64,000 nt of DNA from an uncultured Gammaproteobacteria bacterium (GCA_963777675.1 CAVZRD010000011.1:5741-69740); one strand, 5' to 3'. Positions 11,919 to 61,561 are shown, counted from the first letter of the stretch. Translations and numbers: made by a program. The notes: a model not told the origin generated them from the sequence alone.

Positions 11919-11991
11919 TCGCCCGCTGGGGCGGGCTCCTACAGGGCGATGGGTAAAGGCGTGTCTTGTAGGAGCCCGCCCCAGCGGGCGA
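11919..11991. repeat. REP family B inverted doublet (TGTAGGAGCCCGCCCCAGCGGGCGA)
   Basis: Perfect 25-nt inverted repeat, 11919..11943 and 11967..11991. Each arm has its own GCCCGC/GCGGGC hairpin. Located in the dnaQ-rnhA gap. Confidence 0.85.
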
Positions 11992-54266: not shown

Positions 54267-56351
54267 GTGAAGAGATCGTCGAAATCGAAAACCGGACGCG
54301 TCCGGACATCCGAAAAGGCTGCGAAGGCGCTGCTGCCGGCGCTCGCCATGGTCGGCGGCAGTCTCGTCGCTCTGCCCGCGCATGCGCTCGAGCTCGGCGA
54401 CCTGCAAGTGCACTCGTCGCTCGGCCAGCCACTACGCGCCAGCATCGCCTATGCGCTGGCGCCGAACGAAATCGTGTCCGACACCTGCGTCAGTGTCCAG
54501 CAGGTCATGTCCGCCGACCGACTGCCGTCGGTCGGCAAGGCGTCGCTCATCGTCACCAACGGCGTCATCGCAATTACCGGCAGCCGCGTCGTGCAGGAAC
54601 CGTTGATGTCGATGCGCGTCACCGTCGATTGTCCGTACACACCGCACATCAGCCGTGAATACACTCTGTTCGTGGACCCGGTCTCGTTCCAGCCGGCGAC
54701 CGATGTGCAACGAGCCCCGCAGGCGCAGGCGGCAGCCACTCCGGCACCGGCGCGAAGCAACGCGCCCGCAGCACGCGCTGCGGCCCGGCACGCGCCGATC
54801 GGCGCCTCGACCCGGTATCGCGTGCGTGTCGGAGATTCGCTATCCGAGATCGCAGAGCGCATCGAGAACCGTCCGGTCGGCCTGTGGTCCGCCGTGACGG
54901 CCATCTTCGAAGCCAACCCCGACGCATTCCTCGACAACGACCCCAACAAACTCAAGGCCGGCAGCTGGCTCGACATCCCCGACTTCGGCGCGGGTACGCC
55001 GCCCGTCGTGGCGGAACGCGTCAGGAATGCGCCGGCACCGGTCTCCGAAGTAACGCAGACGGGCACGGCCTACGAGCCCGGTGCCGGCATGCCGGCTGCA
55101 TCTGCCCCGGCGCCCGACCTGAGGCCGGCCGAGCCGACGACCATGAGCCCGGCGGCAGCGGCCGCCGCCGGCACGGCGGCATCCCCCGCAACGGTGGCTC
55201 CCGCCGAGACGGCGACGCCCGTCGCGGCGGAACCGGCGGACAGCCCGTTCGTCGACCTGCAGCCGGGCGACGTGATCCGCGAACCCGCATCGAAGGCGGC
55301 CGCAAACGGCGCCGGCGATCGGACGACGATCCCCGACACCTCGCTCGAGGGGCCGCGCACCACGTCCTCTGCGCCGAACGTACCGATTGGTGTGATTCGG
55401 CCGGCATCGGATCCTGCCGCCCGGTCCACGCATTGGCTCGTCTGGCTGATCGGCGGCGGGCTCGCGCTCATCGGCGGTCTCCTGACGTTCGGCCGGTTCC
55501 GCGACCGCTCCGGATCGTCGCCGATGCCGGCCGCGAGCCCGCATCCGCTGCGCCGACAGTCCGATTTCGATACGCAGCGGGTGGAGGCCATACCCGAGGT
55601 TCATGCCGACGCCGACGCAGTCGCTATCGACGACGACTCGCCGACCGCCGAGAATCTCGCCCTCGATGCCGACCTGGAAATCGGCACCGGCCTTCGCGAA
55701 GGCACGGACGTCGACATCGCGCAGGACTTCGCCTTCGCATCGACGACGGCGCTGGACCTGGAGCTGCCCGAAGAGATGTCCAGTGGCGGCGACGAATCGC
55801 GCCTTACCGACGTGCTGCCGCCATTGCATGCCGGCAACCTGGAGACGATCCTCGAGCGCGAGGTACTCCCCGGCGAGGCGGACGATTACGACATGTCCGT
55901 CATCATAGATGCGACGAAGGTGCCCCTGCCCGAGGACATCACCGAGCGCGACCTCGAGGCGGTCGCGCTGCCCGCCGACGACGAGACACTGATCACCGAC
56001 GACTACACCGTCAGCCAGGAAGTCGACTACAAGATCGTCGAGCAGGACTACGAGGACGAGATGACTGCGACGCAGGCGCTGAACGCAGAAATCTCGCGCG
56101 CCGCCGAAGAGCTTGCCGCACGCATGGAAGAGGATCCGGATTCCACCGGCATCTCGATGGCCAGCGTCCACGAACTCGACGTCACGGCGCAGTTGCGCAG
56201 CGGCAACGACGACGACGTCGGCGACCTCGACGACACCGGTATCAACGAGCAGACCGTCAGCCTCGAGGCCGAGGACAAGACCGTCGAGATGAACGCCGGT
56301 GAGAAAGACAAGACCGCCGAGATGCCGATCAAGAAACGCCGCGGCGCCTGA
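54267..56351 (+). CDS. Second FimV-N-terminal-domain protein (signal/TM, FimV N-domain, LysM-like, TM, acidic tail; no FimV C-terminal motif)
   Basis: Intact 694 aa. ALELGDLQVHSSLGQPLRASIAYAL..REYTLFVDPV parallels the FimV N-terminus. YRVRVGDSLSEIAERI..LKAGSWLDIP is LysM-like. TM WLVWLIGGGLALIGGLLTF. DLDDTGINEQ motif shared with fimV. Confidence 0.75.
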   Translation: MKRSSKSKTGRVRTSEKAAKALLPALAMVGGSLVALPAHALELGDLQVHSSLGQPLRASIAYALAPNEIVSDTCVSVQQVMSADRLPSVGKASLIVTNGVIAITGSRVVQEPLMSMRVTVDCPYTPHISREYTLFVDPVSFQPATDVQRAPQAQAAATPAPARSNAPAARAAARHAPIGASTRYRVRVGDSLSEIAERIENRPVGLWSAVTAIFEANPDAFLDNDPNKLKAGSWLDIPDFGAGTPPVVAERVRNAPAPVSEVTQTGTAYEPGAGMPAASAPAPDLRPAEPTTMSPAAAAAAGTAASPATVAPAETATPVAAEPADSPFVDLQPGDVIREPASKAAANGAGDRTTIPDTSLEGPRTTSSAPNVPIGVIRPASDPAARSTHWLVWLIGGGLALIGGLLTFGRFRDRSGSSPMPAASPHPLRRQSDFDTQRVEAIPEVHADADAVAIDDDSPTAENLALDADLEIGTGLREGTDVDIAQDFAFASTTALDLELPEEMSSGGDESRLTDVLPPLHAGNLETILEREVLPGEADDYDMSVIIDATKVPLPEDITERDLEAVALPADDETLITDDYTVSQEVDYKIVEQDYEDEMTATQALNAEISRAAEELAARMEEDPDSTGISMASVHELDVTAQLRSGNDDDVGDLDDTGINEQTVSLEAEDKTVEMNAGEKDKTAEMPIKKRRGA

Positions 56352-56379
56352 TCCGGCACCGCCGACGCGCTCCGGCCAA

Positions 56380-56614
56380 CACCCGTAGGAGCGGCTTCAG
56401 CTGCGATCCCGACGCCCTCCGACGACCACCCGTAGGAGCGGCTTCAGCCGCGATCCCGACGCCCTCCGACGACCACCCGTAGGAGCGGCTTCAGCCGCGA
56501 TCCCGACGCCCTCCGACGACCACCCGTAGGAGCGGCTTCAGCCGCGATCCCGACGCCGTCCGACGACCACCCGTAGGAGCGGCTTCAGCCGCGATTCCGA
56601 CGCCGATCGTGCCA
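56380..56614. repeat. Tandem array of 5 REP-A copies, 47-bp period, forward orientation (3' flank of the RAYT gene)
   Basis: Unit CACCCGTAGGAGCGGCTTCAGCCGCGATCCCGACGCCCTCCGACGAC starts at 56380, 56427, 56474, 56521 and 56568, with near-identical spacers. The fifth copy contains the RAYT stop codon. Confidence 0.95.
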
Positions 56615-57115
56615 AACGGAATCCCAGTGCGGATAATCGTCCGGGTCCTGTACGAGCCCGGCCCTGACCGGATTGTGAATCAGGTATTCGGCTGCTTTCC
56701 GGAGATCTTCCGACACCCGGACGGCGTGGTCGTAATATCCGGCCTGCCAGATTCTGCGCCGCTTTCCGCCGAGCAGATTGATCTGCCTGGCTGATCGGCC
56801 CTTTAGATATCGGACTAGCAGAGCAAGACGCACATTCTCATGCAACTGGACCAGCCAGTGAATGTGATCCGGCATTACGACGTGAGCGAGGCTTACACAC
56901 AGGCCTTCAGCCGCAAGCCGCTCGAACTGTTCCTCGACAATCCGTGCGTACGATTCGTCTTTGAAGCGCGGTGTTCTACGATAACAACAGGCCGTGATGA
57001 AGTAGATTCCGCAGTTCTCGGAGTAGCGGTGCTTGCGAAGTGCTCGACTTTTCGGCAATGACCGCCCCACCGCGAAGATTTTGACCGACGGAGTCGCGCT
57101 GTTGCGCGAGCTCAA
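56585..57115 (-). mobile_element. REP-associated tyrosine transposase (RAYT / TnpA-REP, IS200/IS605 Y1 HUH family)
   Basis: Intact 176 aa. HUH motif MPDHIHWLV, catalytic-Tyr region IWQAGYYDHAVR, YLIHNPVRAGLV..DYPHW tail typical of RAYTs. Flanked by inverted REP arrays. About 52% GC by hand count of one line. Confidence 0.88.
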
Positions 57116-57149
57116 ATTTGTCTCTTTGTTTAGAAATGACGACGAGAAG

Positions 57150-57380
57150 ATCGCGGCTGAAGCCGCTCCTACGGGTGCGGATGCAGGGGCGGTGGCACGA
57201 TCGCGGCTGAAGCCGCTCCTACGGATGCTGATGCAGGGGCGGTGGCACCATCGCGGCTGAAGCCGCTCCTACGGGTGCGGATCCAGGGGCGGTGGCACCA
57301 TCGCGGCTGAAGCCGCTCCTACGGGTGCGGATCCAGGGGCGGTGGCACCATCGCGGCTGAAGCCGCTCCCGTGGGAGCGG
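57150..57380. repeat. Tandem array of 5 REP-A copies, 50-bp period, reverse orientation (5' flank of the RAYT gene)
   Basis: Unit ATCGCGGCTGAAGCCGCTCCTACGGGTGCGGATGCAGGGGCGGTGGCAC(G/C) starts at 57150, 57200, 57250, 57300 and 57350. The last copy has decayed to ..GCCGCTCCCGTGGGAGCGG.., a new hairpin just 3' of parC. Confidence 0.95.
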
Positions 57381-57381
57381 A

Positions 57382-59639
57382 TCAGGTTCCGGGTGGCATG
57401 CCCAGCAGGCGGTCGACGTGGCGCCAGCCGCGCGGTAACAGGGTCCCGCGCAATGCGCGCTCGCCGTAGTAGGCGTCCGTGTCGTTCCAGCGAATGGTCA
57501 TCGTGCGGGTGCCGCTGTGGACCTGCAGGTCGCCGTCCTCGGGCACGACGGCGATCGCGACGAGTTTCTCCTCGCCGGCCTGGTACTTCTTCGACGGGAT
57601 GTTGATGAGCTTGATGCCCTTGCCCTTGGCGAGGTCCGGCAACTCTTCCATCTCGAACAGCAGCAGGCGGCCGATCGAGCTGACGGCGGCGATCAGGCAT
57701 TCCGTGCCGGGCGGCACCGCCGCGGGTACCACGGCGCGGCCTCCGGCCGGCACTCGGAGGATGGACTTGCCCGCCTTGTTGCGCGTGACGAGCTCCGACA
57801 GCGTCGCGACGAACCCGTAACCGGCGTCCGATGCCAGCACGGCTTTCTGGTCGCCCTCGCCGATCATCACGCCGCAGAATTCGGCGCCGTCCGGTGGATT
57901 GAAGCGGCTCGACAGGGGTTCGCCCTGGCCTCGCGCCGACGGCAGCGATTGCGCGATGACGCTGTACACGCGACCGGTGCTGTCGATGAACATGGCGAGC
58001 TGGTTGCTGCGCCCCTGCGCGGCCGCGAGGAAACCGTCGCCGGACTTGTAGGACAATGCCAGCGAATCGACATCGTGGCCCTTCGCGGCGCGCGCGAAGC
58101 CGCGTTGCGAGAGCACCACGGTCACCGGCTCCGCGCTGACGAGCTGGGTCTCGTCGAGCGCCTGCGCCGCCTCGCGCTCGACGATCGCGGTGCGCCGCGC
58201 ATCGCCGTAGGTTTCGGCGTCCGCCAGGATCTCGTCCTTGATCAGGGTCTTCAGGCGTGCCGCGCTCTTCAGCGTCTTCTCGAGGGCGTCACGCTCGTCC
58301 GAGAGTTCTTCCTGCTCGCCGCGGATCTTCATCTCCTCGAGCTTGGCGAGGTTGCGAAGGCGCAGGTTGAGGATCGCCTCGGCCTGCGCGTCGCTGAGCT
58401 TGAAGCGCTTCATCAGCACCGGTTTCGGCTCGTCCTCGGCGCGGATGATCGCGATGACCTCGTCGATGTTGAGGTACGCGACGAGCAGGCCGTCGAGGAT
58501 GTGCAGCCGGTCGGTGACGATCGCGAGGCGGTGCTGCAGGCGGCGCTTGACCGTCTCCTTGCGGAACGCCAGCCACTCGGTCAGCAGGCCGACCAGGTCG
58601 AAGCTGCGCGGCCGTCCGTCGAGACCGATGACGTTCATGTTGATCCGGCAGCTGCGCTCCAACGACGTCGTCGAGAACAGGTGCGACATCAGTTCGTCCT
58701 TGTCGACCCGGTTCGAGCGCGGCGTGATCACCAGCCGCGTCGGCTCCTCGTGGTCCGATTCGTCGCGCAGGTCCTCGACCTGGGGCAGCTTCTTCGCGCG
58801 CATCTGCGCCGCGATCTGCTCCAGCACCTTGCTGCCCGAGATCTGGTGCGGCAGCGACGTGATCACGATGTCGCCGTTCTCGACCTTGTAGCGCGGCCCG
58901 CAGCCTGAGCGTGCCGCTGCCCGTTGTATACATCTGCTTGATGTCCGCACGCGGCGATACGAGCTCGCCGCCGGTCGGATAGTCGGGGCCCTTGATGTGT
59001 TTCATCAGCTGCGCGACGGTGGCATCCGGATTGTCGATCAGGTGGATCAGCGCGCTCGCCACCTCCCGCAGGTTGTGCGGCGGCACGTCGGTCGACATGC
59101 CGACGGCGATGCCGGTCGTGCCGTTCAAGAGCAGATTCGGGAGCCGCGCCGGCAACACCTCGGGCTCGTCGAGCGTACCGTCGAAATTCGGTGTCCAGTC
59201 GACCGTGCCCTGCCCGAGTTCGTCGAGCAGCGTCTTCGCATACCGCGCGAGGCGCGATTCGGTGTAGCGCATCGCCGCGAAGGACTTGGGATCGTCGGTC
59301 GAGCCCCAGTTGCCCTGCCCGTCGACGATCGGGTATCGGTAGGAGAAATCCTGCGCCATCAATACCATGGCTTCGTAGCAGGCGACGTCTCCGTGCGGAT
59401 GAAACTTGCCGATGACGTCGCCGACCGTGCGCGCCGATTTCTTCGGCTTCTGACCCCGCCGACAGACCCAGTTCGCTCATCGAGTAGATGATCCGCCGCT
59501 GCACCGGCTTCAGGCCGTCGCCGATATGCGGCAGCGCCCGGTCGAGGATCACGTACATCGAATAGTCGAGGTAGGCTTTCTCCGTGTAGTCCTTCAGCGG
59601 CAGCTGTTCGACGCCCTCGAGATTCAGACTGTTTTGCAT
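57382..59639 (-). pseudogene. parC: DNA topoisomerase IV subunit A; at least 2 frame breaks (about 59460 and 58900), probably sequence errors
   Basis: [52 protein letters not shown] (ATG 59639). Then ..[33 protein letters not shown] (active-site Tyr region). Then ORF 57382..58950 (C-terminal 520 aa). Confidence 0.9.
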
Positions 59640-59664
59640 GTGTCGGCCTCCTCGGCCACGGAGC

Positions 59665-61561
59665 TCAGACTTCCGCCAGGTTGCCCTTGGTCTCGAGCCA
59701 CTTGCGCCGGTCGCCGGCGCGCTTCTTCGCCAGCAGCATGTCCATGAGTTGATCGGTCTTTGTCGCGGCCTCGAGACGGTGAGCTGCACGAGCCGACGCG
59801 TGTCGCGGTCCATCGTCGTCTCGCGGAGCTGCGACGGGTTCATCTCGCCCGAGTCCCTTGAAGCGGGTCACCGAGACCTTGCCGCGCAGTTTCTCCGCGT
59901 AGATACGGTCGCGTATGCCGGTCGAGCTCGGCTGTCGTCGAGCGCGTAGAACACTTCCTTGCCGACGTCGACTCGATACAGCGGCGGCATCGCGATGTAG
60001 ACGTGGCCGGCCAGCACCAGCTCCCGGAAATGACGCAGGAACAGCGCACACAGCAGCGTCGCGATGTGCAGGCCATCCGAGTCGGCATCGGCGAGGATGC
60101 AGATCTTGTGGTAGCGCAGGTTGCTCGAGCGTGGTTGCACCGGGGTCGACGCCGAGCGCGATGCTGATGTCGTGCACCTCCTGCGAGGCGAGGATCTCGG
60201 CGGAATCGACTTCCCAGGTATTCAGGATCTTGCCGCGCAGCGGCATGATGGCCTGTGTCGACCGGTCACGCGCCTGCTTCGCCGAGCCGCCGGCCGAATC
60301 GCCCTCGACGAGGAAGATCTCGCACAGTTCGGGTTCCTGGGAGTACAGTCGGCGAGCTTGCCCGGCAGTGCCGGGCCGCTGACGATCTTCTTGCGGACGA
60401 CCTTCTTCGCGTCCTTGAGCCGCTTCTGCGCCCGGCCGATCGCGAGCTGCGCGATCGCATCGCCGGTCTCGGGATGCCGGTTCAGCCACAGCGAGAAATT
60501 GTCCTTGATGACGCCGGCGACGAACGCGGCGGATTCACGCGAGGACAGCCGCTCTTTCGTCTGGCCCGAGAACTGCGGATCCTCCAGCTTGGCGCTACAG
60601 CACGAAGCTGAGGCCGTCCCAGACGTCCTCCGGCGCGATGGTGACGCCGCGCGGCACCAGGCTGCGGAAATCGGCGAACTCCCGCAGCGCGTTCGGTCAG
60701 GCCGGTACGCAATCCGTTGACGTGGGTGCCGCCCTGTGGCGTCGGGACCAGGTTCACGTAACTCTCGGCGATCGCCTGGCCGCCCTCGCCGACCACCCAG
60801 GCCAGCGCCCAGTCGATGGCCTCGTTGTTGCCGGTGAGGCTGCCCGAGAACGGTTCGGCGGGCAGCAGCTCGGCGCCGCCGCCCGACTCGACCAGGTATT
60901 CGTCGAGCCCGCCCTCGTAGCACCATTCGAACTTCTCCTTTGTCTTCTCGACCTTGAGGCGCACCGTGAGGCCGGGACAGAGGACCGCCTTGGCGCGCAG
61001 CGCGTGCTTTAAACGCGAGATCGAGAACACCGGGGAATCGAAGTATTTCGGATCGGGCCAGAAGCGTATGGTCGTCCCGGTATTGGCCTTGCCGACCGTA
61101 CCGACCTGCTCGAGCTTGCCGCGCTTCGCGCCGCCGGCGAAGCTCATGTTGTATTCCTTGCCGCCGCGCCGGATCCAGATCTCGAGATTCTTCGACAGCG
61201 CGTTGACGACGGACACGCCGACGCCGTGCAGGCCGCCGGAGAACTGGTAATTCTTGTGCGAGAATTTGCCGCCCGCATGCAGGCGGGTGAGGATCAGCTC
61301 GACGCCCGGGATCTTCTCCTTGGGGTGTTTGTCGACCGGCATGCCGCGGCCGTCGTCGTCGACCTCGACGGAGCCGTCCTTGTAGACGGTGACCTCGATC
61401 TTCTTGCAGTGCCCCGACAGCGCCTCATCGACGCTGTTGTCGACGACTTCGTGTGCGAGGTGATTGGGCCGGCTCGTGTCGGTGTACATGCCCGGCCGGC
61501 GCCGAACAGGCTCCAGCCCGCTGAGGACTTCGATGTCCGCGGCATCGTATCGTTTCGCCAT
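59665..61561 (-). pseudogene. parE: DNA topoisomerase IV subunit B; about 6 frame breaks, probably sequence errors
   Basis: ORF 60482..61561 (MAKRYDAADIEVLSGLEPVRRRPGMYTD..HLAHEVVDNSVDEA..GGLHGVG). Then pieces QFSGQTKERLSSRE, LFLVEGDSAGGSAKQARDR-like ([34 protein letters not shown]), [55 protein letters not shown]. Confidence 0.9.

Follow-up and report, generated by a model that had tools for sequence, protein, structure and literature searches.

What kind of element is formed by a single transposase gene that lies between two arrays of the same short palindrome in opposite orientations, and how did the arrays arise? The question was raised by positions 56,380 to 57,380 of a stretch of 64,000 nucleotides (GCA_963777675.1, CAVZRD010000011.1:5741-69740; below, the window, with positions counted from its first nucleotide) from an uncultured Gammaproteobacteria bacterium. 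There, a first-pass annotation had recognized a gene for a repetitive extragenic palindrome (REP)-associated tyrosine transposase (RAYT) bracketed by REP arrays. The genome assembly comprises 3.35 Mb in 17 contigs and is 83% complete, and the locus lies on the 359-kb contig C11. The locus is very probably a canonical REPtron, of the type known from Pseudomonas, Stenotrophomonas, and Marinomonas and putatively of "group 3", and its arrays appear to be local reiterations of a neighboring gene end together with one REP.

The open reading frame (ORF) at 56585..57115 on the minus strand (176 aa from TTG 57115) matched the NCBIfam model NF047646 (REP_Tyr_transpos) over model positions 1-146 with 140.9 bits at a cut-off of 80, and Pfam Y1_Tnp (PF01797) with 48 bits, so that the hidden Markov model search bore out its assignment as a RAYT. 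The match to NF033573 (transpos_IS200) reached 45.1 bits, under the cut-off of 55. The best match in PDB was E. coli TnpAREP (4er8, E 4e-7). Alignment to this structure placed the HUH motif H84-I-H86, within the sequence PDHIHWLV where the first-pass annotation had located it, on H59-M-H61, and also placed Y144 (in AAEYLIHNP) on Y115 and N148 on N119. In TnpAREP, Y115 is the catalytic tyrosine, and H59/H61 together with N119 are the metal ligands (Messing et al., PMC3479197). As judged from the alignment to Y115, the predicted catalytic tyrosine is Y144 and not, as had been proposed, a residue of the WQAGYYDHAVR block, which is a conserved family block without the catalytic tyrosine and reads GYHDH in the closest relative.

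The frame was confirmed by an independent relative, L136, a JGI metagenome contig of 1023 bp that carries the same locus beside the same fimV end and breaks inside the 50-bp array. The same 176-aa RAYT frame was present, with 93% protein identity and a difference of 5.5% in the gene (97% nucleotide identity in the fimV end), and the HUH motif (as HVH) and EYLIHNP were kept. Synonymous divergence (dS) between the two genes was 0.146 and dN/dS was 0.21, which indicates purifying selection on the RAYT gene. Both start candidates, TTG 57115 and GTG 57070, were conserved in L136. A third, TTG 57058, was considered because homologues align from residue ~21, but was rejected, as L136 has TTT at this position.

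Placement in group 3 is tentative and follows the best protein matches, which were RAYTs of Pseudomonas, Stenotrophomonas, Luteimonas, and Methylotenera with 40-50% identity and the shared C-terminus ...YPHWD..W, compared with only E 4e-7 for the E. coli enzyme. The closest homologue in 185,579 species genomes had at most 50% identity, and in a collection of 5.8 billion proteins only the L136 protein was close.

The REP that flanks the gene is the 25-mer CCGTAGGAGCGGCTTCAGCCGCGAT, built as GTAG-GA-GCGGC-TTCA-GCCGC, i.e., with a 2-nt gap, a perfect 5-bp GC stem, and a 4-nt loop. As single-stranded DNA the hairpin with the TTCA loop folds at -6 kcal/mol (z = -1.9); the loop is TTCA or, in about 25 copies, TTTA. 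With up to 3 mismatches, 50 copies were found in the window and 0 in 100 shuffles, in agreement with the earlier remark that the same REP is scattered over the window. Genome-wide, 260 copies were counted at the same tolerance, 114 of them exact, on 16 of the 17 contigs, and REP-derived words were the most frequent 20-mers, which makes this REP the dominant genomic repeat. The commonest cluster type was the inverted "-+" doublet (57 of 128 clusters). Fifty of the 70 "-+" pairs overall were spaced 56-57 bp apart, and the consensus of such a pair folds as one hairpin of ~82 nt, so these pairs are REPINs. A second GTAG-tagged REP family, GTAGGAGCCCGCCCCAGCGGGCGA, was encountered at 11919-11991 of the window, sharing the GTAGGAGC head and having CCCGC as its stem and CCCA as its loop; its 26 genomic copies often form "+-" pairs ~35 bp apart. 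No cognate RAYT for it was found in the 83%-complete assembly, and the family may be served by the same RAYT or may be a relic.

The census of Y1 genes and REPs suggested by the first-pass annotation supports its proposal that this enzyme mobilizes the flanking REP. The RAYT gene is present in a single copy, and one RAYT was found for the dominant REP family in the assembly. The only other Y1/HUH gene (contig C9:41786-42499, L002:1495-2208) encodes a 237-aa protein with 29% identity to the RAYT and 82 bits on the RAYT model. This gene is not flanked by the REP in question; on either side of it lies another inverted repeat of 19-25 nt, AAAGGTGTCAGGTTTATTT (L002:1384-1408 and 2203-2227), which has 15 copies genome-wide, mostly as close inverted pairs. 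The 3′ end of the C9 gene and one repeat arm are duplicated 133 bp downstream. In congeners, the RAYT homologues of four genomes (37-44% identity) were associated with the same GTAGGAGC head and a different stem or loop, and the exact REP was essentially absent from all 5 congeners tested. At the level of sequence, the usual co-variation of RAYT and REP is thus seen.

Tandem Repeats Finder delimited the left array, on the fimV side and 3′ of the RAYT gene, at 56362..56604 (period 47, 5.2 copies, 96% matches, score 437), and the right array, on the parC side and 5′ of the gene, at 57150..57383 (period 50, 4.7 copies, 94% matches, score 405). Five REPs on the plus strand start at 56383, 56430, 56477, 56524, and 56571 in the left array (spanning 56383-56595), each unit consisting of a 22-nt spacer and the 25-nt REP. 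In the right array, five REPs on the minus strand start at 57150, 57200, 57250, 57300, and 57350 (spanning 57150-57374) with spacers of 25 nt. Periods, copy numbers, and the opposite orientation of the right array agreed with what had been read from the sequence at first; the start of the left array was shifted to 56362 from 56380. On both sides the order is 5′-GTAG...hairpin-3′ going inward to the RAYT gene, which gives the locus its inverted symmetry. Like all RAYT genes, this one has a set of REPs on either side, the two sets being inverted relative to each other (defining statement in PMC2817692).

The array borders differ in detail. The RAYT-side border of the right array coincides with the 3′ tail of a REP, and the left array closes with a partial unit of ~9 nt, CCGACGCCG, at 56597. 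The TGA stop codon of the RAYT (56585-56587) falls within the TTCA loop of the REP at 56571-56595, as had been noticed on first reading; the last 7 codons run into this fifth REP, the final codons coming from a partial spacer and the REP itself. In the REP at 57350-57374, GTAG is replaced by CACG, with 3 mismatches in all, which creates the hairpin CCGCTCC-CGTG-GGAGCGG at 57363-57380 (folding energy -13 to -14 kcal/mol), only 1 nt away from the stop codon of parC (57382-57384). The first-pass annotation had described this hairpin correctly and had called the copy the innermost one; it is the copy farthest from the RAYT gene. The degenerate REP (57350..57380, minus strand) is probably the ancestral copy at the site, and in the congener G044 a related REP follows parC at the corresponding position.

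The origin of the arrays could be read from their spacers. In the right array, the spacer GGTGCCACCGCCCCTGGATCCGCAC is copied, with divergence, from the final 25 nt of parC, ATGCCACCCGGAACCTGATCCGCTC, and the left-array spacer CCGACGCCCTCCGACGACCAC resembles the 3′ coding end of the RAYT gene. Because the spacers are copied from the ends of neighboring genes, each array is a reiterated "gene end plus REP" unit and not a series of independent insertions. Within an array, spacers differ at 0-3 of 25 positions. Between L136 and this genome, parC-side spacers show 5-7 differences in 25 positions, whereas no difference separates the two copies of L136. Homogenization within a genome combined with divergence from L136 points to concerted evolution with continuing expansion and contraction. 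These comparisons support the view that local tandem duplication both produced the arrays and drives their turnover, as had been suggested at first, for their origin, from their regularity. A resemblance to a CRISPR array was considered and rejected, since the spacers are near-identical and derived from neighboring gene ends.

In the proposed mechanism, the single-copy HUH/Y1 enzyme would bind the GTAG-tagged REP with its 5-bp hairpin on single-stranded DNA and would cut at nearby CT/CA dinucleotides by means of Y144 and a metal bound by H84/H86, by analogy with the TnpAREP enzymes of E. coli, S. maltophilia, and Marinomonas. Cleavage would disperse REPs over the genome, for the most part in the form of 82-nt inverted doublets. 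At the locus itself, each flanking REP with ~22-25 nt of the adjacent gene end would have been reiterated head to tail to five copies. The likely route would be slippage during replication or unequal exchange among the direct repeats, in which the hairpins or the enzyme may have assisted, and the arrays would be continually homogenized and resized.

Several observations weigh against this reading. Array copy numbers were taken from one assembly with indel errors nearby, and on the fimV side L136 has two units only, which is either real or a short-read collapse of identical inner units. The ~9-nt repeat at the end of the left array fits slippage without excluding an enzyme-made origin. RAYT relatives of this group terminate at ...YPHWDA(I/V)W(L/I/V) (e.g., ...WDAIWL), and the RAYT described here ends in ...YPHWDSVWHDRRRNRG, 7 residues past the canonical ...W(L/I/V) end, reading into the REP. 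No sigma-70-like promoter upstream of the RAYT on the minus strand was found in a promoter scan. Binding and cleavage of single-stranded REP DNA by the enzyme are putative. Truncation of an autoinhibitory tail by the array, which would yield a hyperactive enzyme like TnpAREP-delta152, was considered and rejected, as the relatives are without such a tail and the protein is longer by 7 residues.

It is possible, though not likely, that the RAYT itself made the arrays, by cleavage at CT/CA in the linkers followed by strand transfer or by rolling-circle amplification of an excised single-strand circle. Among the minisatellite-type arrays of the genome, the REP is found in 5 of 14, and in 5 of the 6 with at least 90% unit identity. 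CT and CA dinucleotides occur in both spacers, and the RAYT-proximal border of the right array is placed exactly at a REP tail. Models of this kind have been published for the amplification of bacterial interspersed mosaic elements (BIMEs) (Ton-Hoang et al. 2012, PMC3333891). However, the partial unit CCGACGCCG of the left array is expected from slippage between short direct repeats, hairpins promote slippage by themselves, and the present data fit both mechanisms. Tandem repeats free of the REP were also present in the genome, at C10:60002-61496 (48 bp x 31, 78% unit identity, probably coding) and at C9:223767-223937 (48 bp x 3.5, 98%).

Arrays of this kind were not confined to the RAYT locus. 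Three other head-to-tail arrays of single REPs, all away from any RAYT, were detected at C1:340960 (68 bp x 5.6), C1:369671 (63 bp x 5.9), and C15:55048 (48 bp x 3.7). Of 80 related RAYT loci of other species, 17 had a tandem array no more than 700 bp away from the RAYT, and in 4 there were arrays on both sides. A few of these loci (L066 and L078) have single-REP units of ~45-47 bp in 4-5 copies, and at L007, a congener locus, one side carries four copies in tandem. It has been described that singleton REPs are reiterated head to tail together with flanking DNA (PMC3733652), as have ordered tandem REP/REPIN clusters, some of them beside RAYTs of SBW25 (PMC3116915), and BIME-2 arrays flank E. 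coli yafM on both sides (PMC2817692). The 5+5 symmetry is therefore at the upper end of the known range and not new in kind; of the two parts of the initial comment on the arrays, local amplification was upheld by the homogenized, gene-end-derived spacers, and rarity was not. In the complete congener G005, the cognate REP GTAGGAGCGGCTTTNNAGCCGCGA has 132 copies and forms many arrays of 110-bp period and alternating orientation, i.e., REPIN units (for example, G005:C1 1609-2402, 737601-738007, and 836070-836474), in contrast to the genome described here, where the units are single REPs arranged head to tail.

The history of the site was examined in 30 sampled congeners. In the 27 that were readable, fimV and parC are directly convergent, tens to ~250 bp apart, without a RAYT. 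In the two congeners whose ParC is most similar, this spacer contains REPs. In G044 (84%, the most similar ParC), the spacer (L104:2301-2440) carries GTAGGAGCGGCCCATGGCCGCGAT immediately behind parC and, close to fimV, a degenerate partner in inverted orientation. In G006 (L105:2307-2500), REPs of another type are present as two GTTGGAGCGCTTCTTGAAGCGCGAT copies with inverted partners. The fimV-parC site is a recurrent landing place of REPs or possibly a former REPtron site. The presence of the RAYT is lineage specific, and the data fit either an arrival in this lineage or an old resident that was lost elsewhere.

The gene also differs from its surroundings in composition and in the density of REPs around it. 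The GC content of the RAYT gene is 57.6%, compared with 64.5% for the genome; outside the REP overlap it is 56.4%, at the 3.8th percentile of 454-bp windows, which confirmed the low value estimated earlier from a single line of sequence. GC at third codon positions (GC3) is 0.64 in the RAYT, 0.83 in fimV, and 0.91 in parC. The density of REPs peaks at the start of contig C11, in a ~110-kb stretch that includes the RAYT, with 38-40 copies per 50 kb compared with a genome mean of 3.8, then falls steadily rightward from the gene, with none beyond 220 kb. This peak fits cis-biased spread or recent arrival, with the probability of coincidence in a single genome being roughly 1 in 20. It was not replicated in the complete congener G005, where the densest region (0-125 kb) is about 1 Mb from the RAYT.

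These data bear on whether the gene and its REPs are an autonomous or recently mobile IS200/IS605-like element that entered the fimV-parC spacer by transposition or horizontal transfer and not a domesticated, immobile RAYT, which we regard as unlikely. Such a move would agree with the uninterrupted fimV-parC junction in the 27 congeners, the low GC3 relative to the neighbors, the distance of at most 50% identity to the closest homologue in the species genomes, and the REP density around the gene, a feature that was read as recent arrival in the Marinomonas REPtrons (PMC8266576). However, the gene is single copy, it scores under the cut-off of the IS200 model, and the flanking hairpins are inverted, unlike the same-strand hairpins of IS200/IS605. 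The relative with a dS of 0.15 has the gene at the same site, so any arrival was not very recent. The REP pair at the empty site of G044 makes loss there an alternative, and low GC3, which the Y1 gene on C9 shows as well, may stem from weak expression. The hallmarks of IS200/IS605 elements (multiple copies, same-strand subterminal hairpins, and often tnpB) were not seen at the locus, and the ORF listing and Pfam search gave no second ORF with a family match between the arrays.

A related reading, quite unlikely in our estimate, holds that the REPtron is young, that the unit arrived by mobility or horizontal transfer, that REPs radiated from it in cis, and that the arrays are enzyme-made concatemers and a donor pool. 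Mobile or horizontal arrival would explain both the low GC3 and the absence of the gene from the 27 congeners, and preferential radiation in cis would explain the density peak within ~100 kb.

That the arrays serve primarily as host regulatory elements, acting as stacked 3′ untranslated region (UTR) hairpins to stabilize or terminate the convergent fimV and parC transcripts and to insulate the RAYT, with the link to the RAYT incidental, is very unlikely. The right array does directly follow the parC stop and the left array lies 31 nt after the fimV stop. E. coli REPs are known as 3′-UTR stabilizers and attenuators, and the RAYT, with no promoter of its own found, may depend on read-through. 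On the other hand, 27 congeners manage without an array at this site, the REP hairpin is weak (the -6 kcal/mol and z = -1.9 given above) and lacks a U tract, and the inverted symmetry around the gene, a hallmark of the family, would be left unexplained. A terminator scan found no intrinsic terminator within the arrays, and an Rfam search of the region gave sub-threshold chance matches only.

Finally, it is highly improbable that the five-copy arrays are an artefact of repeat expansion or mis-joining at a locus with one or two REPs per side, an idea prompted by the frame breaks of parC and parE within 3 kb (taken as indel errors) and by the two fimV-side units of L136, because the units bear point differences of their own (56401 C>T and spacer variants at 57150-57250), the arrays are interior to the 359-kb contig, arrays of other periods (48, 63, and 68 bp) occur elsewhere in the genome, and short-read collapse would explain the count in L136, which breaks inside the 50-bp array.

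Among characterized systems, the canonical REPtron described here most resembles, in its REP, REPtron Mb of Marinomonas sp. MWYL1 (group 3; Corneloup et al. 2021, PMC8266576), with which it shares GTAG, the 2-nt gap, the perfect 5-bp stem, and the T/T/A loop positions. In REPMb, loop positions 1, 2, and 4 (T, T, and A) are essential and position 3 is free (PMC8266576). Both systems have REPs concentrated near the transposase gene and an HUH/Y1 enzyme with the catalytic tyrosine on helix alpha-D, by alignment in the present case. Unlike in REPtron Mb, the REP is distributed genome-wide here (260 copies, mostly as REPINs) and the flanks are 5+5 head-to-tail arrays; the likeness is one of REP design.

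In protein sequence, the best matches were RAYTs of Pseudomonas with 46-50% identity. The RAYT/REPIN system of P. fluorescens SBW25 (Bertels and Rainey 2011, PMC3116915) likewise has a single-copy RAYT beside its own REP cluster, mostly as REPINs, and ordered tandem repeats that include flanking sequence, and the canonical YPHWD..W C-terminal motif is present here. The array units of the present locus differ from those of SBW25 in being single REPs of the same orientation and not REPINs, the stem is shorter, and the stop codon comes 7 codons late and falls within a REP.

The REPtron of E. coli K-12 (tnpAREP/yafM with BIME-2; PMC3333891, PMC3479197) is similar in that reiterated REPs bracket the gene and in the aligned residues H84/H86, Y144, and N148. 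However, its group 2 enzyme is a weak match (E 4e-7), its arrays alternate in orientation (y/z2) with imperfect, longer hairpins, and its ~25-aa autoinhibitory C-terminal tail with E161 is absent from the RAYT here. The exact structure of both arrays, singleton REPs in tandem with flanking DNA, corresponds to the head-tail ("HT") reiterations of GTAG-family REPs (Di Nocera et al. 2013, PMC3733652), which were presented as a general feature of large REP clusters and not specifically as symmetric arrays on either side of a RAYT.

The locus is bounded on the left by a fimV-like gene (54267..56351, plus strand; Pfam FimV_N 40.6 bits), which is convergent on the RAYT 3′ end, and on the right by the 3′ part of parC (57382..58950, minus strand; Pfam DNA_topoisoIV positions 216-431 and DNA_gyraseA_C). 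The RAYT lies downstream of parC on the same minus strand, and a short, AT-richer leader (57116..57149, minus strand) separates the right array from the RAYT start. At 57382-60489 of the window (minus strand), parC is split over three overlapping frames that match DNA_topoisoIV profile positions 1-27, 57-213, and 216-431, and parE is broken into two or more frames (Toprim positions 1-63 and 54-94). That two essential genes carry several frameshifts in so short a stretch (3 kb), in an assembly with 83% marker completeness, points to assembly indel errors rather than pseudogenes.

Conceptually, the locus adds little, as the RAYT/REP association, REPINs, and tandem REP reiteration have been published. 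It offers a clean, small example in which a lone RAYT is paired with a single dominant REP family whose 5-bp stem follows the biochemically characterized Marinomonas Mb design, and in which the origin of the arrays from neighboring gene ends, their concerted evolution, and the lineage-specific presence of the gene are readable from the sequence. As such, it is a possible model for the dependence of array growth on the enzyme and for the neighborhood bias of REP spread. If the doubtful reading of a young REPtron were true, the locus would provide genomic evidence for the mobility of RAYT genes and for cis-biased REP spread, both of which are unproven in the literature.

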